A DNA stretch of 64,000 bases, taken from contig JAGQKV010000002.1 of the NCBI GenBank assembly GCA_020429915.1, forward strand, positions 405,874-469,873. Reading direction: 5' to 3'. Shown here in pieces: positions 2-49,188 of the stretch. Position 1 is the stretch's first letter. Each line of letters begins with the position of its first letter. The DNA is from Candidatus Omnitrophota bacterium. Its GTDB lineage: Bacteria > Omnitrophota > Gorgyraeia > Zapsychrales > Zapsychraceae. The notes beneath the pieces were generated by a model. That model was not told the DNA's origin, did no database searches, and saw only the letters and a list, made by a program, of their open reading frames with translations. The position numbers were made by a program, and so were the translations under genes.

Positions 2-151
2 TTCAAAGATGACGGCACCCTGGTCGGCACGGCGCGGACCGTTCACGTGACGATCGACAAGGACACCCAACAAAAAATTCCGTTACCCGAACGCATGAAG
101 GCCCGGATAGCGGAACTGTACGCCGCAGACAATGCCGCATCAGCGGATTAA
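2..151 (+). CDS. C-terminal fragment of a hotdog-fold acyl-CoA thioesterase (YbgC/4HBT-like; possibly DHNA-CoA thioesterase), 5'-truncated by window edge
   Basis: Frame-2 translation FKDDGTLVGTARTVHVTIDKDTQQKIPLPERMKARIAELYAADNAASAD* resembles C-termini of 4HBT-type thioesterases; convergent with men operon. Confidence 0.4.
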   Translation, partial: FKDDGTLVGTARTVHVTIDKDTQQKIPLPERMKARIAELYAADNAASAD

Positions 152-3542: not shown

Positions 3543-3547
3543 AATCG

Positions 3548-4381: not shown

Positions 4382-4382
4382 G

Positions 4383-8247: not shown

Positions 8248-8364
8248 TGTGTTCTCTTTTGATTAAGCGGACAGCGAATTTGTCAGAAGATGGTGTATGC
8301 TAACACATTTGGTAGGCAAATTCAAAGCGTAATCCACGGACGGAATCGGCCGGGGGATCCGGGA

Positions 8365-9300: not shown

Positions 9301-9301
9301 G

Positions 9302-10219: not shown

Positions 10220-10223
10220 TTGC

Positions 10224-15252: not shown

Positions 15253-15255
15253 GTA

Positions 15256-17115
<1,860 letters not shown>

Positions 17116-17264
17116 CTAATCAAGGATATAGATAATCACAAAAACCGCGATAAGAATTGCCAATATCAACAATACCATAAGCCATGCTATGGTCAGTGCG
17201 CGGGAGTCTTGAAGACGCTCGGCCCGCGCGGCGACAACCGGCCCCGCCGGGGCCTGAAGATATG

Positions 17265-17594
17265 TCAGCTGAATGACGTTCCGCAGCCGCAGCTGTTTGT
17301 CGCGTTGGGGTTTTTATACTGAAAACCGCTTTCTTTGAGCGTATCGACGTAGTGGATTTCCGTGCCCTTGATAAACGGCACGCTCTCCGGATTGATCAGG
17401 ATCTTGACTCTCCCCTGATCTACAATAATATCGTTGTCATACGGCTTCTTTTGAAAACGCATATCATAAGACAAACCCGCGCATCCACCCGTTACAACTC
17501 CCACGCGCAGATAAGCACCTTCCTTGCCCTCTCGTTCAGCCATGGCAAGAATCTTATCAACCGCGGGTTCGGTCAGACGAATAATGTTGTCCAT
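17265..17594 (-). CDS. iron-sulfur cluster insertion/assembly protein (HesB/IscA/ErpA family)
   Basis: 109 aa; C-terminal SCGCGTSF motif typical of A-type carriers. Confidence 0.8.
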   Translation of the reverse strand: MDNIIRLTEPAVDKILAMAEREGKEGAYLRVGVVTGGCAGLSYDMRFQKKPYDNDIIVDQGRVKILINPESVPFIKGTEIHYVDTLKESGFQYKNPNATNSCGCGTSFS

Positions 17595-17715
17595 ATTGGA
17601 AATCCTGTGGGTGTTGGTTACAATCTAAGAATATACCACACAGCTTATATAAGTCAATTTGTAACTTAATTGCTTGGGAGACGGTCGAACACCGGTGGGA
17701 TCCGGAACCTTCGAT

Positions 17716-18300
17716 TCACCGCCACTTGATGGAACATCCCATGGCGGGTTTTTGATCGGAATTGACGGGAAGACCCTGCGTGTACTGGTCAACGGCCGCC
17801 TTCAGCTCTTGTTGCCGGACCTTGGCTTCATTCTGCCAATTATCATCCAAACGACCGTGATAGACCAATTTTTGATTCTCATCAAGCAGGTACAAGTCCG
17901 GCGTACATTGGGCATCGAAAAGGCGTGCCGCTGATTGGTCCTCATCGATCAGATAAAGAAAAGGAATCTCCCACTCCTTAATTTTTTCCAGCATCTTAAC
18001 GGGGCTGTCTTCGGGGTAATCGGGGTGGATATTTGGATTCACGGCCACCGTCATAATGCCGCGCTTCTTGGCATATTCGGAAAGTGTAATCAGCCGCGGC
18101 CAAATCGCTTGGGCGTACGGGCAATGATTGCACATAAACGCCACGATCAGGCCGGCATGTTTTCCCTCGGCAAAGAATGCCTGGGAATCAAACATATCGC
18201 CAGCGGGAGATTTCAGCTGAAAGTGAGGGATTTTTTTGCCTAACGGAATTGCAATCGAGTTGACGAGCGCCATGCTGACTCCATCCTTTCTTATTTTCAT
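17716..18300 (-). CDS. thioredoxin-fold thiol:disulfide oxidoreductase (redoxin/AhpC-TSA family)
   Basis: 194 aa with CNHCPY CxxC motif; start may be internal Met at 18273. Confidence 0.6.
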   Translation of the reverse strand: MKIRKDGVSMALVNSIAIPLGKKIPHFQLKSPAGDMFDSQAFFAEGKHAGLIVAFMCNHCPYAQAIWPRLITLSEYAKKRGIMTVAVNPNIHPDYPEDSPVKMLEKIKEWEIPFLYLIDEDQSAARLFDAQCTPDLYLLDENQKLVYHGRLDDNWQNEAKVRQQELKAAVDQYTQGLPVNSDQKPAMGCSIKWR

Positions 18301-27403: not shown

Positions 27404-30106
27404 TTACGCCAGCTTACGCAGGACGGTGTGAAGGATCCCCCCGTTACGGACATAGTCGATCTCCACCGGTGTATCCAGCCGGCAGGTCGTGGTAAATTCA
27501 GTAACCTTTCCACCGGAAGCGGTGGCGCGGACCTTGATCTGCTGGCGTGGCTGCAATGAGTCGCCGATGCCTTCGAAGTCAAAATGCTCATCGCCCTTCA
27601 ACCCCAAAGAATCGACCGATTCCCCCGCCTGAAATTCCAGCGGTATTACTCCCATGCCGGCCAGGTTACTGCGGTGGATGCGTTCATAACTTTGCGCGAT
27701 CACGACCTTCACGCCCAGCAAGGCTGTTCCTTTGGCGGCCCAGTCACGGCTGGATCCGGTTCCGTACTCTTTGCCGGCCAGGACAATCAGGGGCGTACCG
27801 TCGGAGCGATACTTCTGGGAGGCATCAAAAATGCTCATTTTCTCCTGTGACGGAAAATACATGGTCCAGGATCCTTCCGTGCCGGGGGCCAGTTGATTAC
27901 GCAGCCGGATGTTGGCGAACGTGCCGCGCGTCATGACCCGGTCATTTCCCCGGCGCGAACCGTATGAATTAAAATCTTTCGGGGCAACACCCTGTTCCTG
28001 CAGATACCTTCCTGCCGGACTATCGGCGGCAATCGCCCCCGCCGGCGAGATGTGATCCGTGGTAATCGAGTCGCCCACCATGACCAGACAGCGGGCCCCG
28101 CCGATGGCCGCGATCGGCGCCGTGTCTTTGGTCATCCCGTCAAAAAACGGCGGTTCCTGAATGTAAGTGCTGAGCTCTTTCCAGTCGTAGAGTTCGGATG
28201 AGGTCTGGCTGATCGCATTCCAGTTTTCATTGCCTTGGGCCACGTTGGCGTACCGCTTGCGGAAAGATTCGGCGGAGACAAATTGCGCGACCAAATCGCT
28301 GATTTCTTTCTGTGTTGGCCAAATCTCTTTGAGGTAAACGTCCTTTCCTTGTGCATCCCGACCAATCGGTTCATTGACCAAATCTGTCTGTACGGATCCG
28401 GCTAGGGCGTAGGCCACGACGAGCGGCGGACTGGCCAGATAATTGGCCTTGGTATGCGGATTCACCCGCCCTTCAAAATTGCGGTTACCGCTCAGAACGC
28501 TTGCCGCTACGAGATCCCCCTCAACAATGGCCCTGGAGACCTCCTCGGGAAGCGGTCCGCTATTGCCGATGCAGGTGGTACAACCGTAACCGACGATGTG
28601 GAAACCGAGCTTTTCCAAGTAGGGCAATAATCCTGAGGCCCGGATATACTCCTCAACCACTTGAGATCCGGGGGCGAAACTGGTCTTCACATAATTCTTC
28701 ACGCTGAGTCCGCGTTCCACCGCTTTTTTCGCCACCAACCCGGCGCCGATCAGCACATAGGGGTTGGAGGTATTCGTGCAGCTGGTGATCGCGGCAATGA
28801 CGACGGAACCATGCCGCAGGGTCTCGGCGGTTCCGTTCACGACTTGGGCCTGGCGGTCCAAATCACCGCTGTCCAATCCGAAGCCACGTTCTTTTACGGG
28901 CGCAGTCAGGCTTTTGGAAAAGGCGTCTTTCATTTCGGCCAGCGTGATGCGGTCCTGCGGACGCTTGGGACCGGCGAGGCTGGGTGTAACATCCCCTATA
29001 TTCAGTGAGAGCTCATCGGTATATTTGGGATCGGGCGTGCCGGCATCATAGAACATGCCTTGCGCCTTCATGTATTTTTCGACCAGTTCCGTCTCTTCTT
29101 CGCTGCGGCCGGTCAACCGGTAATAACGCAGCGTCTCCTCGTCAACCGGGAACAACCCGATCGTGGCCCCGTATTCCGGTGCCATATTGGAGATGGTCGC
29201 GCGGTCGGGCAATGTCAGATGCCGTAAGCCCGGCCCGAAAAATTCCACAAATTTCCCGACCACTCCCCTCGCCCTCAGCATCTGTGTGACGGTAAGAACC
29301 AGATCGGTTGCCGTTACCCCCTCCTTGAGTTGACCGTCCAGACGAAAGCCGATCACTTCAGGCATCAGCATATAGATCGGTTCACCCAACATAACGGCTT
29401 CCGCTTCGATACCACCGACGCCCCAGCCGACCACGCCCAAACCGTTGATCATGGTGGTGTGGCTGTCGGTGCCGACCAGACTGTCGGGAAAGACGACCAC
29501 GTCACTGCCCGACTTCTTCTGCAGGACACCTTTGGCCAAGTATTCCAAATTCACCTGATGGACGATGCCGGTCGCCGGCGGAACGACCAGGAAATTGTCA
29601 AAGGCCTTTTGCCCCCATTTAAGAAACTCGTACCGCTCTTTGTTCCGGGCAAATTCCATCTCCACGTTTTTCGCCAGGGCATCCGGTGAGCCGAAGACAT
29701 CCACTTGTACCGAGTGATCTATGACCAGATCGCAGGGAACCTGGGGATTGATTTTCTGGGGATCACCTCCCAGACGTTTCAGGGCCGAGCGCATTGCGGC
29801 CAGGTCCACCACGCACGGAACTCCGGTGAAGTCCTGCAAAATCACCCGACCGGGCTTGAAGGCGATGTCCTTCGGATCCGTATACGCGGGGGACCACCCC
29901 AGCAAGGTTTCTATGTCGGCCATCGTAACCGCGTATCCGTCCAGATTGCGTAGCGCGCTCTCCAGCAGCACCTTGATGGAGTAAGGCAGCCCCGCGGGAT
30001 CGCCGATGCCCTGGACGGCCAGCTCCTTGAGATCGTAATACGTATATGTTTGTCCCCGCACCTCGAGGCTTTTCTTGCTGGCGTCATGATTAAAATCTGT
30101 AGTCAC
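27404..30106 (-). CDS. acnA: aconitate hydratase A
   Basis: 900 aa aconitase A; Fe-S ligands in [16 protein letters not shown]. Confidence 0.9.
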
Positions 30107-30255
30107 GAATGAATCCTTTGTTCTATGGACGTTAATGGGAAATTAGGACGAATGCTTTTGGGGTGCCGCCCTTTTCATGGGACGCGAATTCGTATTATAT
30201 TAAACCCGTATAGGATCGTCAACCGTTTCACCGGGCAAAAAAAGCAAAATTACCC

Positions 30256-30284
30256 TTGCACCCGGACATCCAGCTCACTATGAT
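30256..30284 (+). promoter_or_regulatory. predicted sigma70-type promoter (TTGCAC-17-TATGAT) for radical SAM operon
   Basis: TTGCAC 30256-30261, TATGAT 30279-30284; argues ORF-track ATG at 30256 is not the start. Confidence 0.4.
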
Positions 30285-30327
30285 GCATATAGAAATCAAC
30301 TTCAACTTGCCCTGCCCGATTGTACCT

Positions 30328-31848
30328 ATGAATGTTGCCATACTGAATCCCTCCTTCGGGGATGACTTTGTGCGCGTCGCCCGCTGGGCGGCCAAGTCAA
30401 GAGGCCGCGTCCAGCGCCATCCGGAATATCTCCTGACCGCCGCGCAAGTCCTGCTGGATCAAGGTCATGATACCCTATTCGTGGAGGCGGCCGCGCGCAA
30501 CCTCACACCCGAAGAGGCCTTCAAAATCTGCGAAGACCATCGCCCGGGATTACTCATTATTCATGCCACGACCCCGTCAATCTATAACGACATTGAACAA
30601 GCCAAGGAAATCAAGCTCAGAACGGGCTGCCGGGTATGCTTTGTCGGACAGCACGCCTCGGCCGAGGCGGAAAACACCTTCGAGATAGGCCGTAACGTCG
30701 TGGACTTTATCGCCCGCGGCGAATACGATCACACCGTCCGCGATTTGGCTGACGGCGTGGATCCCGGCAAGATTCTCGGATTGACCTGGTGGGATTCCGA
30801 ATCCTTGCAGGCGGTCAAAAATCCCGACCGTCCGCCCGTCGACGTAAATGAGCTCCCCTTCCCCGCCTGGCAATTGATCGAACCGGAGTGGTATCCGGAC
30901 GGCGGGAAAAAATTCCCCTTCCTGACACTGATTACCGGCCGCGGCTGTAACAATGGCTGCACATTCTGCCGCGACCCGCAAATTATGTACGGCTACCGGC
31001 TTCGCAACCGCACAGCCAAGAGTGTCGTCGATGAAATGGAATACGATTTGAAGATCCACCCGCAAGTCCGCGAAATCATGTTTGAGACCGATACATTCGC
31101 CGCCGATACCCAGCACGTGAAGGAAGTCTGCGAGGAAATTATGAAACGCGGACTCCACAAACGCATATCCTGGTCCTGCAATATGCGCGTGAATACCGAT
31201 TTGGAAGTCCTCCCTTTGATGCGTGAGTCCGGGTGCCGGATGCTAATGACGGGATTCGAATTCGGATATGACGACGGCCTGAAAGCGATCAATAAAGGCG
31301 GAGTGTCGGTGGATATGGCCCGTGACTATGCCCATGAGGCCAATCGGCTGGGATTCACCATTCACGGGTGCTTCATGATCGGCGCCCCCGGGGAAACACG
31401 GGAAACGGCACAGCAAACCATCGATTTTGCCAAGAGCCTGCCGCTGGACACGGTCCAGATCACCGGCGTGGCCTCCTACCCGGGCACCTCTCTTTACAAA
31501 TGGGCGAAAGAAAATGAATTCTTGCGTGCGGACGACTGGCGGGAATGGTTGAACGCTCAAAAGGAACAGCGGACACTGCTCAGCTATCCGCAATTCAGCA
31601 GCGAAGAAATCGACGAGTATATCGACCGCGGCCTCAAAGAATTCTATCTGCGCCCGAAGCAGATGTGGAAAATGCTGATCTCGATCCGAAGCATGGGAGA
31701 CCTGCTTCGAAAACTGCATGGATTTAAAGCATTTATGGACTATTTCTTCAAGAAAATCCGCTCTGCATTCGGAAGCACTCCACCCCCCACCGGGCCGGAC
31801 AAGCGGGTTGAGGAGGAACTCAGGACCGGTGAAACGGTCGCACTGTAG
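30328..31848 (+). CDS. B12-binding domain radical SAM protein (class B rSAM, methyltransferase/cyclase-like)
   Basis: N-terminal B12-binding-like domain (MNVAILNPSFGDD), CNNGCTFC CX3CX2C motif; start moved to ATG 30328 downstream of predicted promoter. Confidence 0.7.
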   Translation: MNVAILNPSFGDDFVRVARWAAKSRGRVQRHPEYLLTAAQVLLDQGHDTLFVEAAARNLTPEEAFKICEDHRPGLLIIHATTPSIYNDIEQAKEIKLRTGCRVCFVGQHASAEAENTFEIGRNVVDFIARGEYDHTVRDLADGVDPGKILGLTWWDSESLQAVKNPDRPPVDVNELPFPAWQLIEPEWYPDGGKKFPFLTLITGRGCNNGCTFCRDPQIMYGYRLRNRTAKSVVDEMEYDLKIHPQVREIMFETDTFAADTQHVKEVCEEIMKRGLHKRISWSCNMRVNTDLEVLPLMRESGCRMLMTGFEFGYDDGLKAINKGGVSVDMARDYAHEANRLGFTIHGCFMIGAPGETRETAQQTIDFAKSLPLDTVQITGVASYPGTSLYKWAKENEFLRADDWREWLNAQKEQRTLLSYPQFSSEEIDEYIDRGLKEFYLRPKQMWKMLISIRSMGDLLRKLHGFKAFMDYFFKKIRSAFGSTPPPTGPDKRVEEELRTGETVAL

Positions 31849-31927
31849 GCCGGCGCCTTTAAGTTGACAATCCAAGCTTATTCCGATATATTCAAGATAC
31901 AAATAACCAGCATGAATGGAGGTCGAG

Positions 31928-32206
31928 ATGACTCACGTTGTAACCGAACCTTGTGTTAAATGCAAATATACCGACTGTGTAACCGTCTGCCCGGTCGATT
32001 GCTTTCATGAAGACGAGGAAATGCTCGTCATAGACCCCGAAGTTTGCATCGACTGCGGGGCCTGCATTCCGGAATGTCCTGTTCAGGCCATCTACACGGA
32101 AGAAGATGTTCCCGATCAATGGAAGAGCTACATTGAGTTGAATTCCTCAAAGGCTCCGGATCTACCGGTGATTACCGAAAAGAAAGAGCCGCTCGCCGAT
32201 AGCTGA
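31928..32206 (+). CDS. fdxA: 7Fe ferredoxin (FdxA-type, [3Fe-4S][4Fe-4S])
   Basis: [26 protein letters not shown]...[12 protein letters not shown]; GGAGG RBS 5 nt upstream of ATG 31928. Confidence 0.85.
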
Positions 32207-32306
32207 TCCTCGGAGTCTTGTTCTGGTCTTATCCTTGTTCCGATAGGGCTGGCATACAGACCGAAGTGGGCATCACCAAACGCGTACTATGACGGGAGGT
32301 GTCTCA

Positions 32307-32669
32307 ATGGCTGGCTACGACCACGACAAGAACATTCCGAATCTTCCTGAGAAAATCACTGAAAAGAAAAAGAAACCGAAAATGGTTGCTGTCGTGGATG
32401 AGGATAATTGCACCGGTTGCCAAGCCTGCGTGCCTTTTTGTCCGGTCGACTGCATCGCACCTGTTCCTGACGGAAAATACGAAACGATTATTCCGCCAGT
32501 TCAAATCCGGTTTAACGAATGTACCGGCTGTTCCATCTGCGCCCGCGTATGCACCAAAATGACCTGGGACGCGATTGAGATGTTGCCGACCGCCACATTT
32601 GAAGAAGTTTACCAGATCGAACTCAGCGACGCCACCACTCCTCCCTACGGCACACCGAAGCCGAACTAG
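32307..32669 (+). CDS. 4Fe-4S dicluster ferredoxin
   Basis: CTGCQACVPFCP and CTGCSICARVC motifs; GGGAGG RBS before ATG 32307. Confidence 0.75.
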   Translation: MAGYDHDKNIPNLPEKITEKKKKPKMVAVVDEDNCTGCQACVPFCPVDCIAPVPDGKYETIIPPVQIRFNECTGCSICARVCTKMTWDAIEMLPTATFEEVYQIELSDATTPPYGTPKPN

Positions 32670-32704
32670 ATAGTTGATTCAGCGCCCAGCGGAGCTCCCC
32701 GTAC

Positions 32705-33190
32705 ATGTGGTTTTTTATGATTACCTGCTATGTCATGAGCGCCGTGACATTTGTCTTACTCAGCATAGCCTTTCTGCAAAGCTTTCTCAAATTTCACGTC
32801 TGGCAGGCAGACCACGTCACCTTCATGATTCTGACCAGCATCGTCTATTCGTTCACCGAAACTCTGGTCATTTTTTTCTTTGTCGGCACCGGCGTCAGCG
32901 TAAAAGAATATACACTTGAACATCACCTCGATAGCGGTTATCATAAGCGATCCATCGGAGTCAAACGGGAGGTGTATCCTCCGCTGATGATGAACATTTT
33001 GTATATGATTGTCCTGTTTGTCCTTGTGGGAGCAGTCGACACGCAGCGGGTACCGGCGTGGATTTATTACAGCCTATTTGTCTTCTGCATCGGCGACTAC
33101 CTCCGGGTGAAGATCATCCAGAACAACTGCTTTCGCAAAAACACGCAGATCATACTGGATATGTCCGGCATCAAAAAAAAGGTGGCCTGA
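32705..33190 (+). CDS. hypothetical membrane protein (4 TM)
   Basis: 161 aa hydrophobic ORF; ends in ATGA overlap with next ORF. Confidence 0.4.
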   Translation: MWFFMITCYVMSAVTFVLLSIAFLQSFLKFHVWQADHVTFMILTSIVYSFTETLVIFFFVGTGVSVKEYTLEHHLDSGYHKRSIGVKREVYPPLMMNILYMIVLFVLVGAVDTQRVPAWIYYSLFVFCIGDYLRVKIIQNNCFRKNTQIILDMSGIKKKVA

Positions 33191-33351
33191 TGTATTACGT
33201 GGCCAAGATGCTCCAAGCGGCGGCTTTATCGATCATATTGATCGACTTCCTGCGGAACTTTCCGGAACTGATGAGCCGGACGGTCCTGGTCGTCTGCATC
33301 GCCTTATTTACCTGCGGCTGGATTATTAACCGTTACTTCGTCCGACAATGA
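33190..33351 (+). CDS. small membrane protein, 53 aa (not in ORF track)
   Basis: MYYVAKMLQAAALSIILIDFLRNFPELMSRTVLVVCIALFTCGWIINRYFVRQ; ATGA coupling on both ends. Confidence 0.35.
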   Translation: MYYVAKMLQAAALSIILIDFLRNFPELMSRTVLVVCIALFTCGWIINRYFVRQ

Positions 33352-33488
33352 GCAAAAACAAAGATGTTTTAAAATTCGATTCCGGAGCCGACGGATTTAA
33401 ATTCATGATCTATGTGTTGGCCGTCAGCGCCGTCGTTACTTTGATTCTCGGCGGATATTTTCTGTATACCAATTTTTGTCGACCATGA
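33348..33488 (+). CDS. small membrane protein, 46 aa (not in ORF track)
   Basis: MSKNKDVLKFDSGADGFKFMIYVLAVSAVVTLILGGYFLYTNFCRP; ATGA overlaps at both ends. Confidence 0.35.
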   Translation: MSKNKDVLKFDSGADGFKFMIYVLAVSAVVTLILGGYFLYTNFCRP

Positions 33489-33829
33489 GCCTTCCCCCCT
33501 TTGTCAAAAGATTGATGACCAAGTGGAAAATTAATTCCCTATGGGACTTTTTCGCCATCATGCTGGTTTTCTCACTAGCCGGCATGAGCATCGTATATGT
33601 CCGCCGACCGGTGTTTCATCTGGTCGGTATCACCAAAGAGACCCCCTTCATTTTGAAGTTCTTCTGCTGGCTGCTGGTCGTCTTTCCGTCCTATCAGCTG
33701 GGGCTGCTGGTTTTCGGCTTTTTGCTGGGACAATGGAATTTTTTCTGGGCGAAGGAAAAGCAGATGTTTTCCGCCATCTCTCGGTTGGGCCGGTCGTCGG
33801 CGAGCACCGGCGATAACAAGGCGGCTTAG
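33485..33829 (+). CDS. hypothetical membrane protein (3 TM)
   Basis: ATG 33485 preferred over TTG 33476; hydrophobic 114 aa. Confidence 0.4.
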   Translation: MSLPPFVKRLMTKWKINSLWDFFAIMLVFSLAGMSIVYVRRPVFHLVGITKETPFILKFFCWLLVVFPSYQLGLLVFGFLLGQWNFFWAKEKQMFSAISRLGRSSASTGDNKAA

Positions 33830-34239
33830 AATACGTAGAGCATCAGGTAGATAACAACACCCGTCACCGACACATACATCCACACCGGAAACAGCCAGCG
33901 TGTAATCTTGACATGCCGCGCGAAATCCCCTTTTAGCGCGAAATAAACCGCCGCCAGGATAAAAGGAACCATCAGGGCCGCCAGCGGCGTATGCGTCAGC
34001 AATATGGCGAAATATACCATGCGGATGAAGCCTTCTTCCGCATATTTGGTGGATCCGTGAAGATAATGATACGTCAGGTAAGAAATAAGGAACAAGCCGG
34101 ACGCCGTCAGGGCGGCGATCATGGCCTTCTTATGGGTCTGCTGATCCCCCTTCTTGATGGCGGTATATCCCCACCAGAGGAAAATACCGGCCAAAAAGTT
34201 GAGTGTGGCATTGATCGTCGGAAACACCGGGATACCCAT
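33826..34239 (-). CDS. DUF420 membrane protein (CtaM-like heme-copper oxidase assembly factor)
   Basis: 137 aa, 4 TM, DUF420-like sequence; adjacent to sco/ctaB/ctaA/cox genes. Confidence 0.6.
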   Translation of the reverse strand: MGIPVFPTINATLNFLAGIFLWWGYTAIKKGDQQTHKKAMIAALTASGLFLISYLTYHYLHGSTKYAEEGFIRMVYFAILLTHTPLAALMVPFILAAVYFALKGDFARHVKITRWLFPVWMYVSVTGVVIYLMLYVF

Positions 34240-34835
34240 CAGAACCGCTCCTTTAACAAAGCCGATGCATCCAGGAATAACTGATTCACCTCGGCGGTCA
34301 CCGTTCCGTCGTAGTAGCCGCGGATATACCCGCTGCGATCCACCAACGCCAGCGTGGGACTGAAGGCCCCGGTCGCATCCAGATCGAGACGCAACTGCCG
34401 CTGGACAAATTCATCCACCTCCTCGCGTCTTCCCCCGACAAAAAACCAATTCCCCTTCCCCTGCACATAGCGCCCGGAGAATTCAGACAGTACCTGAGGC
34501 GTATCGCGTACGGGACTGAGTGTCACCGCCACCAGCTTAACAGCGGTCACCTGCTCAAAGGTCCGGCTCAAAGAGGCCATATTCTTCATCATGGCGTTAC
34601 ATCCGTTCACACACGGGGTTGAGAATGCGCCGGCAATCCAAACGTTCCGGTACAGGTCCTGCGCAGCCAGCTTTTTGTTCTGTGCATCCGTGAAGGTGAA
34701 CGGCTTCACCTGTCCCAAGACAGGCAGACGCGGTCGCTGCAGGGACGACTGGAAAATATAGACACCACAAATAACGGCCAGTGCGACGGATAAAGCAACG
34801 CCTGCCATGACAAGATTTTTGCGGGAAGCGGCCAT
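34239..34835 (-). CDS. SCO1/SenC-like thioredoxin-fold protein (copper delivery to CuA)
   Basis: N-terminal TM anchor, CxxxC (CVNGC) in thioredoxin-like fold; context. Confidence 0.55.
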   Translation of the reverse strand: MAASRKNLVMAGVALSVALAVICGVYIFQSSLQRPRLPVLGQVKPFTFTDAQNKKLAAQDLYRNVWIAGAFSTPCVNGCNAMMKNMASLSRTFEQVTAVKLVAVTLSPVRDTPQVLSEFSGRYVQGKGNWFFVGGRREEVDEFVQRQLRLDLDATGAFSPTLALVDRSGYIRGYYDGTVTAEVNQLFLDASALLKERF

Positions 34836-34838
34836 GAT

Positions 34839-35690
34839 TTAAAAGCGCGCGTCGACGATAATCAGGGTTAACAAAATGGGGAGATAAATTACCGTTGCCT
34901 TCAGCAGACGGCGGGCATCGAGCAGGGATTCTGAGCGGATGAATTGAAGACTCACACACAGCATCCACAGTCCCGTGACAAAAGCGCCCAGAAGATAAAT
35001 GAATCCGGATAGTCCGGTCACAGCCGGGATCAATGACACCGGGATCAATAGTATCGAGTAACACTGGATTTGGTGGAACAAATCCCAGCCGTCATGTTCG
35101 CGACCGGGCAGCATCTTGAAACCGGCATTACGATAGTCCTCACGAAACATCCAGGCAATTGCATAAAAATGCGGATGCTGCCAAATGAAAAGGATCAAAA
35201 AAAGTATCCCGGCATCGAAATTCAGATGTCCCGTCGCGGCAGCCCATCCGCCTAACGGTGGCATGGCGCCGGGAAACGCACCGATAGTCGTATTCCACCA
35301 ACTGACTTTTTTCATCGGCGTGTAAACCAACACATACATAAAATTGGTCAACAGCCCCAGAAATGCGGTCAGAATGTTCAACTTCGTGTACAGCACGAAG
35401 ATTCCCAAAAGACTGATGAGGATGCCGAACTGCAAGGCGCGGCGGGGTTCGATGCGTCCGGCGGGCAAAGGCCGTTTGCGCGTGCGGTTCATTAAATTGT
35501 CGGTATCGCGTTCCAGATAGTGATTCAGTACGGCTGAACCACCACAGACCAAACTTGTTCCCAACAGCAAGTAAAACAGGCGCACATAGGAATGGATCCC
35601 CTGCCCGCCCAAATAGTAGCCGATGGTAGCGGTAATTAATACCAACAGAACGATGCGCGGCTTGGTCAATTCAAAATAATCACGCATCAT
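34839..35690 (-). CDS. ctaB: protoheme IX farnesyltransferase (heme O synthase)
   Basis: 283 aa UbiA-family; MMRDYFELTKPRIVLLV N-terminus. Confidence 0.85.
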   Translation of the reverse strand: MMRDYFELTKPRIVLLVLITATIGYYLGGQGIHSYVRLFYLLLGTSLVCGGSAVLNHYLERDTDNLMNRTRKRPLPAGRIEPRRALQFGILISLLGIFVLYTKLNILTAFLGLLTNFMYVLVYTPMKKVSWWNTTIGAFPGAMPPLGGWAAATGHLNFDAGILFLILFIWQHPHFYAIAWMFREDYRNAGFKMLPGREHDGWDLFHQIQCYSILLIPVSLIPAVTGLSGFIYLLGAFVTGLWMLCVSLQFIRSESLLDARRLLKATVIYLPILLTLIIVDARF

Positions 35691-36745
35691 ATCGAATGCC
35701 CCTTCATAAATACTGACATTCGCAACGGAGCGATGCGCAACAGCAGCAGAAAGGTGAGTCCCAATAAGGCAGCTCCGGTCACCACATGCAAACTGGTCGT
35801 GAGCGGTCCTTTCCCGGTTAGCACTGTGGCGATACCCAGGAAAACCTGCGTCGCGATAACTGCGTCAATCCCGAACACGATACGCAAAACAGAGTCCTTT
35901 TGCGGCAACCGGCAACGCAGAGCGAACATGTTGACGACTCCCGCAATGATCACCAGAATGACGGCCCAGAAACGGTGCGCCAAGTGATATAACACATTTG
36001 CCCGTGCGATCGGATCGAGGCCATGCTCAAAACGCCAGTCGTTGACGCGCGCCAAGAACTGATCGTTCACCGTCGGCCACCACTGCCCGGCCATGGTTGG
36101 AAAATCGTAAACCGCCAGCCCTGATCCGGTATGCCGCATGACCGCCCCCAGAATGAGCTGGACGTAAATGCCGGCCAACATGAGGATCGCGGCCGCCTGC
36201 AGACGCCCGTCTCGTGCCTCCGGCAACTCCTGACGACGGCGACGCTCCACAGACTGGGAATAAGCCAGGAAGATTGTCATTAAAAAAAATGTTTGCGCCA
36301 AAACGCCGTGTGCCACGGATACCGGTGTCGGAAGATAAAAAAGCACCGTAATGCCTCCCAGAACCCCCTGCAAAATCACGGCGCCGAGCGCGCAAAAGCC
36401 AACGACCTTTATCCACTTGCGGACTTCCGCAAAAGCCAGCCAAATAGCCAGGCACAGCGTTAAGGCGCCGACGCATGTGGCAATCATCCGATGGCCATGT
36501 TCATAGAATACGCCGCCGACCATCGGCGGGAAAAGCGTACCGTAAGAAAGCGGCCAATCAGGGACGGATAATCCGGATCCGGTCGACGTCACCATGCCCC
36601 CGGCAAAAATCAGAAACAGCGTGGCGGTAACGGTGAGCTTGGTATAACGGCGTAACCAGGGATTATCTTGAGAATCGGCTCGCGAGAGGTCCCGGGAACC
36701 GGGACGGCCGGTACTAGTTCCAGAAGTCGTCATATTCCTCTGCAC
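35687..36745 (-). CDS. ctaA: heme A synthase (COX15/CtaA family)
   Basis: 352 aa polytopic protein with conserved His pairs; overlaps coxB 3' end (start may be ATG 36733). Confidence 0.7.
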   Translation of the reverse strand: MQRNMTTSGTSTGRPGSRDLSRADSQDNPWLRRYTKLTVTATLFLIFAGGMVTSTGSGLSVPDWPLSYGTLFPPMVGGVFYEHGHRMIATCVGALTLCLAIWLAFAEVRKWIKVVGFCALGAVILQGVLGGITVLFYLPTPVSVAHGVLAQTFFLMTIFLAYSQSVERRRRQELPEARDGRLQAAAILMLAGIYVQLILGAVMRHTGSGLAVYDFPTMAGQWWPTVNDQFLARVNDWRFEHGLDPIARANVLYHLAHRFWAVILVIIAGVVNMFALRCRLPQKDSVLRIVFGIDAVIATQVFLGIATVLTGKGPLTTSLHVVTGAALLGLTFLLLLRIAPLRMSVFMKGHSI

Positions 36746-37499
36746 CCTCCTCCCCGATCACAGGGGCATTGCGCGCCACCCACGCGTCATACTCTTCCTG
36801 ATGGTGCACGACTAGGTTGCCGCGCATCCGGTAATGGCCAATTCCGCACAGCTGGGCACAGCCGATTTCAGACGTACCGGATTTGGTGGGTGTAAACCAG
36901 GTCGGAATAACCAGGCCGGGGATGGCATCCTGCTTCACGCGCATGATCGGCAGCGCGAAACTGTGGATTACATCCTTAGAAGTGAGGTAGATGATGGCCG
37001 GTTTGCCGATGGGAAGATGTAACTGGTTGATGGTGGTAAAATCATCCTTACCGTTAGGGTCATCGGGATCAAGACCCAGCGGGTTGGTCTGTGTGTCGAC
37101 CAGCTCGGGACGAGCACTTCCGAATAAACCGTCTGCACCGGGATAATGCACGTTCCAGGCAAACTGCTCTGCCACCACACGGACTTCCACAATATCCTTG
37201 CGGTCGGGAAAGGCATTGACCTGCTTCGCCCAAAACGGGATCGAGAATCCGATCAGTAGCAGGGCCTCGGCCACGACGACTCCGGCCTCGATGTAGCTGG
37301 AGACATGGGATTTCACGCCGCGGTAATTGGCCTTGGGATTCACCCATTTGTTGAAGCGTCCGATACAGATCACAAAAAAGATCCCCCAACCGATAAACAG
37401 GCCGACCATCAGCAGATGGACGAGGATAATCACCATGTCGATGTCGTGCCCGTGCGAAGAGGCAACTATGGGAAGATTGAGCATTTCGGATAAATTCAT
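36714..37499 (-). CDS. coxB: cytochrome c oxidase subunit II (CuA; no fused cytochrome c domain)
   Basis: CuA ligands H...CAQLCGIGHYRM; two N-terminal TM helices; 261 aa, no CxxCH. Confidence 0.9.
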   Translation of the reverse strand: MNLSEMLNLPIVASSHGHDIDMVIILVHLLMVGLFIGWGIFFVICIGRFNKWVNPKANYRGVKSHVSSYIEAGVVVAEALLLIGFSIPFWAKQVNAFPDRKDIVEVRVVAEQFAWNVHYPGADGLFGSARPELVDTQTNPLGLDPDDPNGKDDFTTINQLHLPIGKPAIIYLTSKDVIHSFALPIMRVKQDAIPGLVIPTWFTPTKSGTSEIGCAQLCGIGHYRMRGNLVVHHQEEYDAWVARNAPVIGEEGAEEYDDFWN

Positions 37500-37723
37500 A
37501 ACTCTCCTGTCGACAATCGCGCGCGCTTCTTAAACCTTATTAAGAATGTAACGAACACCGCCATGATCACCAATAAAACCGCCAGCAACGTTAGCACTCC
37601 CCACCGCAGACCACGGTTGGCCGGGGTATCGGTGTCGCCATAGAAACAAATGCTGCACGCCAGAGCTGCGCGCGGAATGGCGGCCAGTATGAACAGATTA
37701 ATCATTATGATCACGCGCACCAT
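37496..37723 (-). CDS. small membrane protein associated with oxidase operon (75 aa)
   Basis: 4-nt overlap with coxB; one TM plus CSIC motif. Confidence 0.35.
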   Translation of the reverse strand: MVRVIIMINLFILAAIPRAALACSICFYGDTDTPANRGLRWGVLTLLAVLLVIMAVFVTFLIRFKKRARLSTGEL

Positions 37724-37724
37724 G

Positions 37725-37919
37725 TCAGTCCTTTACTTTCTTAGCAAACATAATCCCGTAAACAATAAAACCCACGCCGACCAGAAGCGAGCCGATCATG
37801 CTCCACAGATAACTGGGAGAAGCGGTGAGTTGATACTGTTGATAAGCCCAGTAAGCGAAAAACCCCGAAAGAGATACCGTAGCCATAACAAACAGAATAT
37901 GAAAACCGCGCAGGCTCAA
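37725..37919 (-). CDS. small membrane protein associated with oxidase operon (64 aa, 2 TM)
   Basis: overlaps coxD stop by 4 nt. Confidence 0.35.
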   Translation of the reverse strand: MSLRGFHILFVMATVSLSGFFAYWAYQQYQLTASPSYLWSMIGSLLVGVGFIVYGIMFAKKVKD

Positions 37920-38323
37920 TGATGCCCTCCCGACGCCTCCGGAGCCTCCGGCGTTTCCGTATGCGAACCATGTGTTCCGCCGTGCGCACCCGCCTTTTCA
38001 ACATAGTACTCGAAATTGAGGTTCTTGGTCCCATCCGGCACGTCGTGAACCGTATAAACGATGAAAATCATCATAAACAAGAACATAAATGCGGTAAGGC
38101 TCATCACCAGATAAATCAATTTCTTTTCATGGCTCAAATGCATGAAGAACGAGGCCACCAGAGACGCCTTGGTGGTCGCCACGAACAACGCCAAAAAAAT
38201 AGCCAAAGCGATACCGATCTTCAGGCTGCTGATCGCGACGGTGATGACGGTCAGTACGGCCAAGGTGCCGAAGACTTTGTAATACAGGGCCTGCTCTTTT
38301 TTAAAATCGGTTGTTTCTGCCAT
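37916..38323 (-). CDS. coxD: cytochrome c oxidase subunit IV (bacterial CoxD family)
   Basis: MAETTDFKKEQALYYKVF...; ORF-track start overextended, ATG at 38323 chosen. Confidence 0.6.
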   Translation of the reverse strand: MAETTDFKKEQALYYKVFGTLAVLTVITVAISSLKIGIALAIFLALFVATTKASLVASFFMHLSHEKKLIYLVMSLTAFMFLFMMIFIVYTVHDVPDGTKNLNFEYYVEKAGAHGGTHGSHTETPEAPEASGGHH

Positions 38324-38333
38324 ATGAGTTATC

Positions 38334-38930
38334 CTATAAAAGGTAAAGAACGGGAAAGAGGAATATCCATACGAGGTCAACAAAGTGCCAGTACAACCCC
38401 ACCACCTCGATTCGATTGGTGAACCGTTGCGGCTGAGTTTTCCACATCTTGGTTCCCACCGGGAGCCAGAAATACATCAACACTATCGCCCCGCCCACGA
38501 TATGCAGGGCGTGTAATCCGGTGAGCGTGTAATAGATGGCAAAGTACGCGCTCTCCTTGGGAAATATACCGTGAGAGAATTTGGTGCCGTATTCGATCGC
38601 TTTAATAATCATGAAGATCAAGCTGCACAATAACGTCAAACCGAGGGTAAGCTTAAACTTCGGGATGTTTTTTTCTTTCAGAGCCACCCAGGCCAAAACC
38701 ATCGATACACTCGACGAAATCAGGACCAATGTGTTCACTGTGCCTAGCGGCACGTTGAGCAAATCGGAACCGTGCGGCCACGCCGGGGATCCGGTGCGCA
38801 GCAGGACATAGCCTGAAAAAAGCCCTCCGAACAGCATGACTTCGGAAGCCAGAAAAAGCCAAATACCGAATTTCGCATTGTAAAGTCCTGTATCCGGTCG
38901 CGCTTCGACTGTGTACGGAATCATCTCCAT
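38334..38930 (-). CDS. coxC: cytochrome c oxidase subunit III
   Basis: 198 aa, 5 TM, COX3 family. Confidence 0.85.
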   Translation of the reverse strand: MEMIPYTVEARPDTGLYNAKFGIWLFLASEVMLFGGLFSGYVLLRTGSPAWPHGSDLLNVPLGTVNTLVLISSSVSMVLAWVALKEKNIPKFKLTLGLTLLCSLIFMIIKAIEYGTKFSHGIFPKESAYFAIYYTLTGLHALHIVGGAIVLMYFWLPVGTKMWKTQPQRFTNRIEVVGLYWHFVDLVWIFLFPVLYLL

Positions 38931-40693
38931 CAGGCGGCCTCCTTCTGTGCCGGGGCCTCTTCCATTTCGACCTCAGGTTCGTACTGCGGACTGAAGTCTC
39001 TCTTGGCGCCGGGAACACTATATTCGTAAGCCGCACGATACACCACCGGCTCGGTAACGAAATTACCGTGTCCCGGTGGACTCGGAGTGTTCCATTCCAG
39101 AGTGGTCGCTTCCCACGGATTATCCGATTCGACTTTCTTGCCCTTGAACATACTCCAGAAAAAATTAAAGATAAACGGAAGTTGCGCCAGCCCGAGCCCC
39201 CAGGCCGCCCACGAGGACGTGATGTTCAGATGCAAAACGTCCTGGGCATGTTCATAGCCGGCACCGCCATCGTACAACCGACGCGAAACACCTGCCAACC
39301 CGACGATAAACATCGGCATGAAAATGAAGTTCATACAGACCAGGGACGGCCAGAAATGAAGCTGCCCCAAAAGCTCGTTCATCTTGCGTCCGGTCGCCTT
39401 CGGATACCAATGATAAATCCCCGCAAACAGCGCGAAAATGGTACCCGGGGCAACGACGTAGTGGAAATGACCGATGACATAGTAGGTGTCGTGCAAGTGG
39501 ATATCCGCCGTCGAAAGGCCCAAAGGCAAACCGGTCAGGCCGCCGATCCCGAACATCGGCAAGAACGCCAGGGCAAAGAGCATCCGGGTATTAAACCGGA
39601 TCGATCCTCCCCACAGAGAGATAAACAATGCCGTCAGGATGATGATCGACGGTATGGAGATGATCATTGTGGTCGCCTGGAAAAAAGCGTTGATGACAGT
39701 CCCCATCCCCGTCAGGAACATATGATGCGCCCACACGACAAATGACATGAATCCCAAAAAAACAATCGAATACACCATGGACTTATAGCCCCAAAGCGGC
39801 TTGCGGATATTGTTGGCTATGACTTCCGAAACGATCCCCATCGCCGGTAATATCAACACATACACCTCCGGGTGTGCTAAAAACCAGAACAAGTGCTGCC
39901 ACAGCAACACGCTTCCCCCGCCGCTGATGTCGAGCTGTTGACCGCTGACCACCAATCCCGACGGCATAAAGAAGCTGGTACCCGCGACCCGGTCCATCAA
40001 TTGCATGACGCCGGCCGCCAGCAGCGGCGGAAAGGCCAATACAAGCAGGAATGACGTGACCAGCTGCGCCCACACGAAGAACGGCAGCCGCATGAATGTC
40101 AGCCCTTTGGCACGTAACTGAAAAATCGTGACAATGATGTTAATGGAACCCAACAAAGACGATTGGATCAGACAAACCATACCGATAATCCAAAAGGTCT
40201 GTCCCACGGATGCTATAACGGCTAACGGAGCATAAGCCGTCCAGCCGGATGAGGCGGCTCCCCCCGGAAGGAAGAAACTGCCGAGCATGATGATCCCGCC
40301 CGCGAAATACAGCCAGTAACTGGTCATATTTAAGCGCGGAAAGGCCATATCCGGCGCCCCGACCTGAAGCGGAACCACAAAATTTCCAAAGGCGCCGACC
40401 GCCAGCGGAACAATCCCCAGAAAGACCATAATGGTTCCGTGCATGGCGCCAAGTTCGTTGTAAAACTCCGGGAGCATGACACCGCCGGGCATCCGGGAAT
40501 CACCGAACAGATGGCCTATGAGCGGCAGAGGCTGCTCGGGATAGGCTAATTGCCAGCGCATAAGCATAATGAGTCCGAAACCGAACAACAAGAAGAACAA
40601 CGCGGTGATCCCATACTGGATACCGATGACTTTGTGGTCTACCGAAAAAATGTATTTGCGCCAAAACGGCAGTTCGTGATGTGATTCGCTCAT
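38930..40693 (-). CDS. coxA: cytochrome c oxidase subunit I (heme-copper oxidase catalytic subunit)
   Basis: 587 aa, 12+ TM, conserved His ligands (GHPEVY, HHMF). Confidence 0.95.
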   Translation of the reverse strand: MSESHHELPFWRKYIFSVDHKVIGIQYGITALFFLLFGFGLIMLMRWQLAYPEQPLPLIGHLFGDSRMPGGVMLPEFYNELGAMHGTIMVFLGIVPLAVGAFGNFVVPLQVGAPDMAFPRLNMTSYWLYFAGGIIMLGSFFLPGGAASSGWTAYAPLAVIASVGQTFWIIGMVCLIQSSLLGSINIIVTIFQLRAKGLTFMRLPFFVWAQLVTSFLLVLAFPPLLAAGVMQLMDRVAGTSFFMPSGLVVSGQQLDISGGGSVLLWQHLFWFLAHPEVYVLILPAMGIVSEVIANNIRKPLWGYKSMVYSIVFLGFMSFVVWAHHMFLTGMGTVINAFFQATTMIISIPSIIILTALFISLWGGSIRFNTRMLFALAFLPMFGIGGLTGLPLGLSTADIHLHDTYYVIGHFHYVVAPGTIFALFAGIYHWYPKATGRKMNELLGQLHFWPSLVCMNFIFMPMFIVGLAGVSRRLYDGGAGYEHAQDVLHLNITSSWAAWGLGLAQLPFIFNFFWSMFKGKKVESDNPWEATTLEWNTPSPPGHGNFVTEPVVYRAAYEYSVPGAKRDFSPQYEPEVEMEEAPAQKEAA

Positions 40694-40702
40694 ACTAATC
40701 CC

Positions 40703-41419
40703 TTACTTTCCATCCGGTCGTTGAAATGTAAAATCTACCTCCTTGGTCTCCCCTTCGCCCAAGGTGACGGTCACCTGCTGCGGAGCCAAGCGCTGGTGCC
40801 AGGCCTCCAGCACGTATTGGCCCGGCGGCAGATTGTCGATCGTGTAGGTACCGGTTTCGTCGGTCGTCGTGTAAAACGGATGACTCATAACCGTGATATA
40901 CGCACTCATCCACGGGTGGACGTCACATTTGACCTCAAACATGAACTCCGGCTTATCAAAGGTTTTGGTAATTTCTGTGCGGAACTTGGGCATGGCGACG
41001 TTAAACTCGGCATTTTTCTTCGGCAAGGCATGCACATTGTGCAACGTTCCGTCCGGATTCAGGATTTTCAACGGCTGCCCGGCCATGACGCCCATTACGG
41101 CGGGCGTGTAAATACATCCGTGCTGGTTTAACACCTTGGGCTCCTTGGGCACGGGGAAATTGGATTTGGGAAGCCCGTCCTTGACTTGCAAAAAGACATT
41201 CTTAAGCTCATTGTTGGGCCCCAGAATGATCGTTTTGGGAAATACCGTGTCGGTATGCTTGGTAAGACATACGGGATCCGCCCCCATTTTGATGGGCCGG
41301 AGTTTCGGTCGTCGTCCTTGATAGGTCACTTTACCTTTGATCGCGGCCGCCTGCGCCGGCATGGGAAAAGCAAGAATGGCAGCGAGAAACGAGGCTAGTG
41401 TTACGTAGTATATATTCAT
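40703..41419 (-). CDS. secreted beta-sandwich protein with carboxypeptidase-regulatory-like domain signatures and a putative type-1 copper motif (C-x2-H-x2-M)
   Basis: Signal peptide; IKGKVTYQG and TDETGTYTIDNLPPGQYVLEAWH β-sandwich signatures; HNVH...CDVHPWM resembles amicyanin CTPHPFM. Confidence 0.35.
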   Translation of the reverse strand: MNIYYVTLASFLAAILAFPMPAQAAAIKGKVTYQGRRPKLRPIKMGADPVCLTKHTDTVFPKTIILGPNNELKNVFLQVKDGLPKSNFPVPKEPKVLNQHGCIYTPAVMGVMAGQPLKILNPDGTLHNVHALPKKNAEFNVAMPKFRTEITKTFDKPEFMFEVKCDVHPWMSAYITVMSHPFYTTTDETGTYTIDNLPPGQYVLEAWHQRLAPQQVTVTLGEGETKEVDFTFQRPDGK

Positions 41420-44309: not shown

Positions 44310-44883
44310 GATGCCCCTCCTGAATATAAGAAGCCAGCTCGGTGCGGAGCCGTTCTCGCCCGCGGAAGATCAACTGCTTCACATTGGCCAGGGAACAATT
44401 CAGGATCTTGGCTATTTCGTCGTATGAAAACCGATGATACTCCCGCAGGACGATCGCCTCTCTTTGCTGGTACGGCAACCGCAGGATGGCCTCCTGAACG
44501 TGCCGGGCCCGTTCCTTTTTCTGCAGCAGCTCGGCCGAGGAGTCGGCGTGGTCCGGGACATCCCATTGTTCATCCACCGATTTGTCCCTATTGGTGAAGG
44601 TCAGCGAAAAAAGCCGTTTGGATTTGCGCAATTTGTCGATACAGCGGTTGCGCGCGATGGTGAAGAGCCAAGTCGAAAACTTCGCGTTCGTCTGATAACG
44701 GTAGCTGCTCCCGATGAGGGAGACAAATACATCGTGGGTGGCATCCTCGGCGTCGGCCCGGTTGCCCAGCATCCGCAGACAAAAGTTGAGTATCCGATTC
44801 TTGTAGCGATGGAATATCATGGTGATGGCCTCGCGATTTCCCTGCTGGAAATCGTGCATGATGTCTTCGTCCGTCTGATCCAT
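44302..44883 (-). CDS. ECF-type RNA polymerase sigma-70 factor
   Basis: 193 aa sigma70 region 2/4. Confidence 0.85.
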   Translation of the reverse strand: MDQTDEDIMHDFQQGNREAITMIFHRYKNRILNFCLRMLGNRADAEDATHDVFVSLIGSSYRYQTNAKFSTWLFTIARNRCIDKLRKSKRLFSLTFTNRDKSVDEQWDVPDHADSSAELLQKKERARHVQEAILRLPYQQREAIVLREYHRFSYDEIAKILNCSLANVKQLIFRGRERLRTELASYIQEGHHE

Positions 44884-49174: not shown

Positions 49175-49188
49175 TGTTTCACCGATTC

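Follow-up and report, generated by a model that had tools for sequence, protein, structure and literature searches.

The locus

We have analysed a stretch of 64,000 nucleotides (referred to as the window) from the genome of a Candidatus Omnitrophota bacterium (assembly GCA_020429915.1, contig JAGQKV010000002.1, positions 405,874 to 469,873), in which a gene for a radical S-adenosylmethionine (SAM) enzyme, hereafter the rSAM gene, is followed by two ferredoxin genes, fdxA and fdx2 (Table 1). An initial reading of the bare sequence, which we call the original prediction, described this group as a class-B, cobalamin-dependent radical SAM gene with its own promoter and two dedicated ferredoxins, set beside haem and oxidase machinery, and it named a quinone, a haem or a lipid such as a hopanoid as candidate substrates. 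We have compared the locus with 52 species-representative genome loci (53 sequences with the window itself); the relatives from outside the Omnitrophota clade number 62, of which 7 are genomic and 55 metagenomic.

The rSAM protein begins at the ATG and not at the TTG of the mechanical open reading frame, as had been predicted. An NCBI protein of 506 amino acids (P0001, annotated as 'radical SAM protein [Candidatus Omnitrophica bacterium]') is 100% identical to the rSAM product and starts at this ATG, and an alignment of 37 homologs shows no variation at the residues M1, N7, P8 and S9. The length of 507 amino acids given at first thus has to be corrected to 506.

The promoter that had been proposed for the rSAM gene is present as well, even though it matches the consensus at 8 of 12 positions and was not listed by a consensus scan. 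Transcription is predicted to start at around position 30291, giving a leader of about 36 nucleotides without a clear Shine-Dalgarno site. In related Omnitrophota loci, an element consisting of CTTGCA or CTTGAA, some 17 nucleotides and TAnTAT is found at the equivalent position upstream of rSAM. The pattern TTG[AC][AC]-N16-18-TAN[TAG]AT occurs within 130 nucleotides upstream of rSAM in 34 of 43 Omnitrophota loci, as compared to 0.7 expected from mononucleotide shuffles; the pattern was written post hoc, after the upstream regions had been viewed, and the excess is very large. We take this conservation to show that rSAM is transcribed from this predicted promoter of its own.

Table 1. Positions of the rSAM gene, the ferredoxin genes and neighbouring features in the window
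Feature	Position	Strand	Basis and remarks
Aconitase A, 900 amino acids; divergent neighbour, context and not a functional unit	27404-30106	-	Pfam Aconitase, 559.6 bits
Divergent aconitase promoter (TTGACG, 17 nt, TATAAT)	30194-30222	-	Scan, 11/12 consensus; conserved in aligned intergenic regions
rSAM promoter (-35 TTGCAC 30256-30261, 17-nt spacer, -10 TATGAT 30279-30284)	30256-30284	+	8/12 consensus, conserved upstream
Mechanical open reading frame from TTG, 530 amino acids	30256-31848	+	Open-reading-frame track
rSAM gene from ATG, type A HpnJ-like, 506 amino acids	30328-31848	+	Domain, alignment, family-model and structure-model evidence
fdxA promoter (TTGACA, 17 nt, TATATT)	31864-31892	+	Consensus scan, 11/12 consensus
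Shine-Dalgarno site of fdxA (GGAGG)	31918-31922	+	Sequence
fdxA, 92-amino-acid 7Fe ([3Fe-4S][4Fe-4S]) FdxA-type ferredoxin	31928-32206	+	Cysteine pattern, NCBIfam, Pfam Fer4 families
Shine-Dalgarno site of fdx2 (GGAGG)	32295-32299	+	Sequence
fdx2, 120-amino-acid 2x[4Fe-4S] ferredoxin	32307-32669	+	Two CxxCxxCxxxC motifs, domain matches
DUF420, SCO1, CtaB, CtaA, COX2/3/1 (oxidase cluster)	33826-40693	-	Pfam
Extracytoplasmic function (ECF) sigma factor and 920-amino-acid vWA/YfbK_C protein	41547-44883	-	Domains; beyond the oxidase cluster

Sequence and predicted fold of the rSAM protein

The rSAM protein belongs to the radical SAM superfamily, since the motif C207-x3-C211-x2-C214 is invariant across 132 aligned proteins and the Pfam model Radical_SAM (PF04055) matches with 74.5 bits at a cutoff of 29.5. 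Three further cysteines, C268, C284 and C303, are widely conserved in the alignment of the superfamily; we considered them as candidate ligands of an auxiliary Fe-S cluster, for which we make no claim. The protein has an N-terminal Rossmann-like (B12-binding-like) domain, the radical SAM barrel and a C-terminal helical region, and its AlphaFold2 model (pLDDT 74, pTM 0.75) adopts a class-B-like two-domain fold. The predicted structure thus agrees with a class-B-like enzyme, as in the original prediction, while the Pfam B12-binding model scores 21.5 bits and stays below its cutoff of 32.1.

Among solved structures, the best fold match of the model is AprD4 (PDB 6fd2), with template-modelling (TM) scores of 0.66/0.73, followed by TsrM, MgmA, OxsB, CysS and TokK (Foldseek probability 1.0, TM scores of 0.55-0.65), and by sequence, too, no PDB entry matches the rSAM protein better than AprD4 (60.5 bits). 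The predicted fold thus can be aligned with the cobalamin binders TsrM, OxsB and TokK, but its best match, AprD4, is an enzyme that binds no cobalamin (PMC12931638). For this reason, cobalamin dependence of the rSAM protein is not established, and a 'B12-binding' label in an annotation should not be read as proof of it.

AprD4, whose substrate is a sugar, resembles the rSAM protein in having a Rossmann-like N-terminal domain that is followed by the radical SAM barrel. It acts as a 1,2-diol dehydratase on the aminoglycoside sugar of paromamine in an antibiotic pathway of actinomycetes, but the two proteins are only about 20% identical. Likewise, TsrM, MgmA, OxsB, CysS and TokK share the two-domain architecture at an identity of 12-20%.

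Within Omnitrophota, the rSAM protein is more conserved than the neighbouring aconitase in 31 of 32 loci (73.7% versus 68.4% identity to the window proteins). This difference shows stronger purifying selection on rSAM than on its housekeeping neighbour.

A clade of HpnJ-like enzymes

Among the curated families, the HpnJ model (TIGR03471) gives the best match to the rSAM protein. The domain order is the same, and the alignment extends from end to end (residues 8-474 on positions 9-468 of the 472 of the model), but the score of 343 bits stays far short of the 577.6 that are set as the equivalog cutoff. Nor does any of the other named class-B families, HpnP among them, reach its cutoff, with 97.1 bits against a cutoff of 481 for BchE, 66 against 650 for HpnR, 82.9 against 360 for the ladderane radical SAM family and 79 against 600 for PhpK. 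A clear orthology to a characterised enzyme such as BchE or HpnR, which the original prediction had expected to speak against it, thus was not found. Furthermore, 16 other HpnJ-like representatives score between 291 and 471 bits on the HpnJ model, which indicates that such a match marks membership in a large HpnJ-like superfamily and not orthology. None of 10 further representatives scanned against NCBIfam reached the HpnJ cutoff (the best had 470.6 bits), and the true HpnJ clade could not be marked in our tree.

In this tree, which was built from 132 proteins by neighbour joining and carries no support values, the proteins of Omnitrophota fall into a single group, which is nested among proteins that are encoded in a glycosyltransferase context (L039-L041, L044, L045, L049, L050 and L059). 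The residues R25, R27, R30, H31, H79, C101 and C348 are common to the Omnitrophota proteins, to L039-L050 and L059 and to P0121-P0125, and they differ in the other 108 HpnJ-like proteins. We call this clade, which unites the window-type enzymes with HpnJ-like enzymes linked to the gene cassette described below, type A. The position in the tree, the signature residues and an identity of 41-58% to the cassette-linked enzymes show that the predicted rSAM product belongs to this uncharacterised HpnJ-like clade, whose radical SAM enzymes have a B12-binding-like domain. It is a stand-alone member of the clade. It is a matter of speculation whether the arginine-rich signature suits a phosphate-bearing substrate.

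The seven genomic relatives that do not belong to Omnitrophota share 41-58% of their residues with the window protein; they come from Elusimicrobia, Rifleibacterium, a Dehalococcoidia metagenome-assembled genome (MAG) and unclassified bacteria. The 55 metagenomic type-A relatives, with 42-61% identity, were obtained by a metagenome scan with the enzyme of locus L049. In an exhaustive phmmer search of 1.84 billion cluster representatives, five clusters were found at 43-59% identity, followed by a continuum at about 30-40%. In the literature that we searched, no paper described the type-A clade or its gene cassette.

HpnJ has been proposed to contract the glucosamine ring of bacteriohopanetetrol (BHT)-glucosamine to the BHT cyclitol ether (PMC13459092, PMC9204698), and in a published sequence similarity network it clusters together with Fom3 and MoeK5 (PMC9204698). 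HpnJ acts after the GT2 glycosyltransferase HpnI, and the cassette relatives of the rSAM gene likewise are paired with a gene for a membrane-bound GT2. However, this GT2 is MftF-like and has no match to HpnI at E <= 1e-10. The window protein itself differs from HpnJ in the N-terminal part of its signature (R25, R27, R30 and H31), in its identity of about 33-35% to other HpnJ-like proteins of unassigned function and in its lack of a hopanoid context, given that the 64-kb window and the flanks of the 52 related loci showed none of the genes shc, hpnH, hpnI, hpnK and hpnG. According to a genome survey whose main text makes no mention of Omnitrophota, HpnJ domains occur only in genomes with SHC and HpnH (bioRxiv 2025.07.29.667474).

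A glycan gene cassette around relatives in other phyla

The genes found near rSAM among the seven genomic relatives include those for a short GT2 of the polyprenyl-phosphate type together with a DUF2304 protein, and those for GT4 and PMT_2 (GT-C) glycosyltransferases. Further genes in their vicinity encode UDP-glucose dehydrogenase, UXS-like and RmlD-like enzymes and a class I methyltransferase. A second, membrane-anchored GT2 of about 325 amino acids, which matches the NCBIfam models MftF, EpsD and PgaC, is found at most 3.5 kb from rSAM in all seven of them. In Elusimicrobia, Patescibacteria and other groups, these genes form a cassette in the order short GT2, DUF2304, rSAM, MftF-like membrane GT2 and SAM methyltransferase, which often is accompanied by Alg13/14-like, LPG_synthase_TM and GT-C (PMT_2 or STT3) genes.

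At L049, the order is GT2, DUF2304, rSAM and membrane GT2, with an overlap of 4 nucleotides between DUF2304 and rSAM. At L059/L060, it is GT2, DUF2304, rSAM, GT2, methyltransferase, Alg14, Alg13 and LPG_synthase_TM, and NCBI assigns the GT2 of this group to a Nealsonbacteria MAG. The gene overlaps in L049, L050 and L059 suggest a translational coupling. Among the 55 metagenomic relatives, 41 have one or more cassette genes in the part of the flank that was available, and in 36 the membrane GT2 is among the genes present.

Some metagenomic proteins of 541-543 amino acids (P0324, P0394) combine the membrane GT2 of the cassette with its class I methyltransferase in a single chain. Such fusions support the notion that both activities act on the same product. 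MftF and a methyltransferase also act together in the glycosylation of mycofactocin.

Gene order around rSAM in Omnitrophota

The phylum Omnitrophota carries two lineages of HpnJ-like radical SAM enzymes, which are found in different contexts. Besides type A, there is a paralog that we call type B. In the loci L053-L058 (for instance in L055 at 6538-9630), the type-B gene is followed directly by two genes, one for an MftF-like membrane GT2 and one for a class I methyltransferase, and the group in L055 is flanked by STT3 on the one hand and by DUF2304 and a short GT2 on the other.

The type-A gene sits among housekeeping genes. The order leuB-leuD-leuC-acn / rSAM / fdxA-ilvBN is conserved across Omnitrophota loci, and the ancestral arrangement is a housekeeping block of this composition. 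A homolog of the aconitase gene is found in 34 of the 52 loci; in 22 of them it is directly divergent from rSAM, and in 11 more it is 1.6-4.9 kb away. The junction between aconitase and rSAM and the one between rSAM and fdxA are interrupted by insertions at comparable frequency, which matches what is expected from neutral retention of gene order.

The oxidase cluster downstream, by contrast with this block, is present in only 17 of the 52 loci. In loci without it, rSAM (or fdxA) is followed by the pair of ECF sigma factor and vWA protein that in the window lies beyond the oxidase cluster; homologs of the 920-amino-acid vWA/YfbK_C protein presumably are anti-sigma factors. That the pair follows directly after rSAM elsewhere suggests that the 8.7-kb region at 32705-41419 is an insertion. 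The haem and oxidase genes noted in the original prediction thus are indeed there, but a functional link to rSAM does not follow from their presence, and the adjacency looks like a lineage-specific insertion. The proposal of a quinone, haem or hopanoid substrate likewise finds no support, given the distribution of the oxidase cluster and the fact that no hopanoid gene was seen in window and flanks.

Between fdx2 and the oxidase cluster lie genes for two small membrane proteins, one of 161 amino acids without a match in Pfam or NCBIfam (32705-33190) and one with a DUF6787 domain (33476-33829). They occur mostly in oxidase-bearing loci (16 and 19 loci, respectively) and may be oxidase accessory proteins.

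In deeper-branching Omnitrophota loci, the recurrent neighbours of rSAM are genes for DJ-1, an SPL-like radical SAM protein, an aldo-keto reductase, exonuclease III, NfnAB-like proteins and RlmL. We considered whether remnants of the cassette might be among them and ruled this out, the neighbours being unrelated housekeeping genes.

The ferredoxin genes

The two ferredoxins were correctly recognised in the original prediction, as was the GGAGG sequence in front of each. The fdxA product carries the cysteine pattern CxxCxxxxCxxxCP...CxxCxxCxxxCP at C9, C12, C17, C21 and C40, C43, C46, C50. In this pattern and in its length it corresponds to the Azotobacter-type FdxA; it covers positions 1-91 of the 104 of the NCBIfam model NF045490, and its score of 128.6 bits is marginally under the cutoff of 135, with a C-terminal tail that is shorter than in the model. 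The fdx2 product has an N-terminal extension and an insert between its two cluster motifs.

The claim that both ferredoxins are dedicated to the radical SAM enzyme does not hold up. The gene fdxA has a near-consensus promoter of its own, which is stronger than that of rSAM and is absent from the original prediction, and its transcription is predicted to start at around position 31899. A related promoter-like site is found upstream of fdxA in 23 of 32 loci, as compared to 0.04 expected, and a GGAG or GAGG Shine-Dalgarno site precedes fdxA in all 32. The promoter-like site is also kept in L024, L030, L034 and L042, where 2.4-3.5 kb separate fdxA from rSAM; in L024, L030 and L034, site and gene are located immediately upstream of ilvB-ilvN, and in L042 fdxA is followed by ilvB. 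Because this promoter persists where fdxA is kilobases away from rSAM, we take fdxA to be an autonomous unit, which probably is strongly expressed.

The phyletic distribution of the ferredoxin genes agrees with this. Homologs of fdxA are present in 31 of the 52 loci, mostly directly 3' of rSAM and at a distance in the four loci mentioned, and at least 8 Omnitrophota loci retain rSAM without fdxA within the examined flank. The gene fdx2 was detected in 11 of the 53 sequences (10 loci and the window), all of which carry cytochrome oxidase genes. Among the 62 relatives outside the Omnitrophota clade, no homolog of fdxA, fdx2 or aconitase is found nearby. Promoters and distribution thus do not support a dedicated operon of rSAM and ferredoxin genes, and the ferredoxin genes look like separate housekeeping genes.

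A 2-oxoacid:ferredoxin oxidoreductase is encoded in the window as well, with its beta and alpha subunits at 9302-12047 (minus strand; domains POR_N, POR and TPP_enzyme_C), so that FdxA has other obvious partners. In L023, L033 and L035, which lack fdxA, subunits of an NfnAB-like ferredoxin:NADP oxidoreductase are encoded several kb downstream of rSAM on the opposite strand (in L033 at 14607-16846, with the domains Fer4_20 and Pyr_redox_2, and DHODB_Fe-S_bind and NAD_binding_1); this probably is housekeeping synteny.

Possible function of the type-A enzymes

With respect to function, we favour a role of the rSAM protein in the radical tailoring of a sugar or glycoconjugate, to which we would give about an even chance by analogy with its relatives, while any single chemistry is rated much lower. 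The enzyme would use a 5'-deoxyadenosyl radical to modify a sugar moiety that is either lipid-linked, for instance to polyprenyl phosphate, or nucleotide-linked, and that is bound for the cell envelope. Precedents among the nearest characterised relatives would be the ring contraction to a carbocycle (HpnJ), the dehydration of a diol (AprD4) and the methylation of carbon by the sugar or phosphonate C-methylases MoeK5 and Fom3. The gene would have left the cassette in Omnitrophota and now be located in the housekeeping block, and the [4Fe-4S] cluster of the enzyme probably is reduced by the general ferredoxin pool, to which an abundant FdxA may belong. A more specific version, which we put forward tentatively and hold to be rather unlikely as a whole, is that type A makes an unusual sugar of envelope glycoconjugates (a carbocyclic cyclitol-type, deoxy or C-branched sugar) that is common to Patescibacteria, Elusimicrobia and other little-studied phyla, and that in Omnitrophota it persists as a stand-alone, highly constrained core enzyme, which may draw its electrons from FdxA.

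Several observations weigh against this sugar-tailoring role, at least in Omnitrophota. No cassette gene lies within 8 kb of rSAM in the window or in any Omnitrophota type-A locus, so that type A here is, as far as the loci extend, physically uncoupled from the cassette. Moreover, among more than 120 homologs of the membrane GT2 that were compared, none was traced to the same contig as a type-A rSAM gene, which is a weak negative. Where the membrane GT2 does occur in Omnitrophota, its partner is the type-B paralog, which is 33% identical to the rSAM of the window, and the substrate of type A in this phylum may therefore be a different one. In addition, the tree that nests the Omnitrophota proteins among the cassette-linked ones is the unsupported neighbour-joining tree described above, and any chemistry assigned to the clade would be by analogy only, since no member has been studied. 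Finally, fdxA directly follows rSAM in most Omnitrophota loci, and no terminator-like site was detected between the two genes; some read-through from rSAM is thus possible, and there may be a functional link to fdxA after all.

It is this proximity that speaks for the arrangement envisaged originally, namely a dedicated module of rSAM and both ferredoxins, with the latter serving as cognate low-potential reductants of an enzyme that modifies a quinone, haem or lipid tied to the haem A and cytochrome oxidase machinery. Radical SAM enzymes require a one-electron donor, and menaquinone, haem and oxidase genes are all located in the window. Such a module is nevertheless quite unlikely, in view of the separate and persistent promoter of fdxA, the restriction of fdx2 to loci with oxidase genes, the position of the oxidase cluster at what looks like an insertion site in a minority of loci, the loci that have rSAM but no fdxA, and the lack of either ferredoxin near the relatives outside the clade. 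The adjacency of aconitase and rSAM is about as stable as that of rSAM and fdxA, as it would be under neutral synteny, and the 2-oxoacid:ferredoxin oxidoreductase is another user of ferredoxin in the window. A different possibility is that the Omnitrophota enzyme was repurposed for a core function unrelated to glycans and tied to aconitase, leuBCD and fdxA-ilvBN, for example in connection with a cofactor linked to Fe-S or central carbon metabolism, or with the modification of a lipid made from branched-chain precursors. The conserved synteny of the housekeeping block would fit such a role, as would the higher conservation of rSAM as compared to aconitase, the local absence of the cassette partners and the use of type B by the glycan cassette of Omnitrophota. 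We nonetheless regard it as unlikely, because the genes are served by separate promoters, aconitase and rSAM are set apart by insertions of 1.6-4.9 kb in 11 loci, and the loci devoid of fdxA have unrelated housekeeping neighbours. Furthermore, all signature residues of type A are kept in Omnitrophota, which argues for an unchanged substrate-binding site, and we know of no radical SAM step in the aconitase, leu and ilv pathways.

The remaining candidate identity, a true HpnJ that forms the cyclitol-ether head group of bacteriohopanepolyols, or else a different enzyme of hopanoid or bacteriochlorophyll synthesis (HpnR, HpnP or BchE), is very improbable and largely refuted. It draws on the HpnJ family being the best-scoring one with an end-to-end match. 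However, the scores of this and of the BchE and HpnR models fall far short of their cutoffs, ten other, unrelated HpnJ-like representatives reach 320-470 bits on the HpnJ model, so that the score is generic to the superfamily, hopanoid genes were not seen in window and flanks, and the surveyed HpnJ domains are confined to genomes with SHC and HpnH.

To our knowledge, most radical SAM enzymes with a B12-binding-like domain are without a known function. Our analysis provides one such clade with a testable context, namely a compact cassette in several mostly uncultured phyla, and it identifies an Omnitrophota enzyme that persists alone, outside both the hopanoid context and the ancestral cassette. 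If a ring contraction like that of HpnJ or a C-methylation of a sugar were to be confirmed, this would be a sign that the envelopes of Patescibacteria, Elusimicrobia and Omnitrophota contain a glycoconjugate that has yet to be described. Similarly, if the product were a carbocyclic, deoxy or C-branched envelope sugar, head-group chemistry of the HpnJ and calditol kind would extend beyond hopanoids and archaeal lipids. The rSAM gene therefore is a reasonable lead for enzymology and for the envelope glycobiology of uncultured phyla, while being one among very many radical SAM enzymes without an assigned function. For annotation, the locus illustrates that a gene does not form a functional module with ferredoxin and oxidase genes just by lying next to them, and that a top match to HpnJ does not mean hopanoids.

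Other genes in the window

The start of the window (140-8247, minus strand) holds what looks like a complete classical menaquinone operon. MenF (Chorismate_bind), MenD (thiamine pyrophosphate (TPP) domains) and MenA (UbiA) are recognised by Pfam, and we take the remaining genes, by eye only, to be MenE, MenC, MenB and the methyltransferase. A distance of 22 kb separates this operon from rSAM, and the two are not linked in other loci.

An open reading frame of 608 amino acids without a Pfam match (13426-15252, plus strand) is flanked on one side by a ThiH/BioB-like radical SAM gene (12172-13332) and on the other by a gene at 15256-17052 that we assume by eye to be thiC. No TPP riboswitch or other Rfam family was found upstream of this putative thiC (16900-17750, E <= 1), and E-value Rfam scans revealed no cobalamin or other riboswitch in 30050-33500 or in the putative thiC leader. 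At the gathering cutoff, there was no Rfam match in the whole 64-kb window, and it contains no tRNA gene.

On the far side of the sigma factor pair, a multihaem cytochrome c of 978 amino acids is encoded on the minus strand (46238-50307; Cytochrom_C and Cytochrome_C7 domains, MtrC-like), adjoining a gene for a cytochrome b-like membrane protein. The two may constitute an unusual module for quinol oxidation or extracellular electron transfer upstream of the ATP synthase genes.

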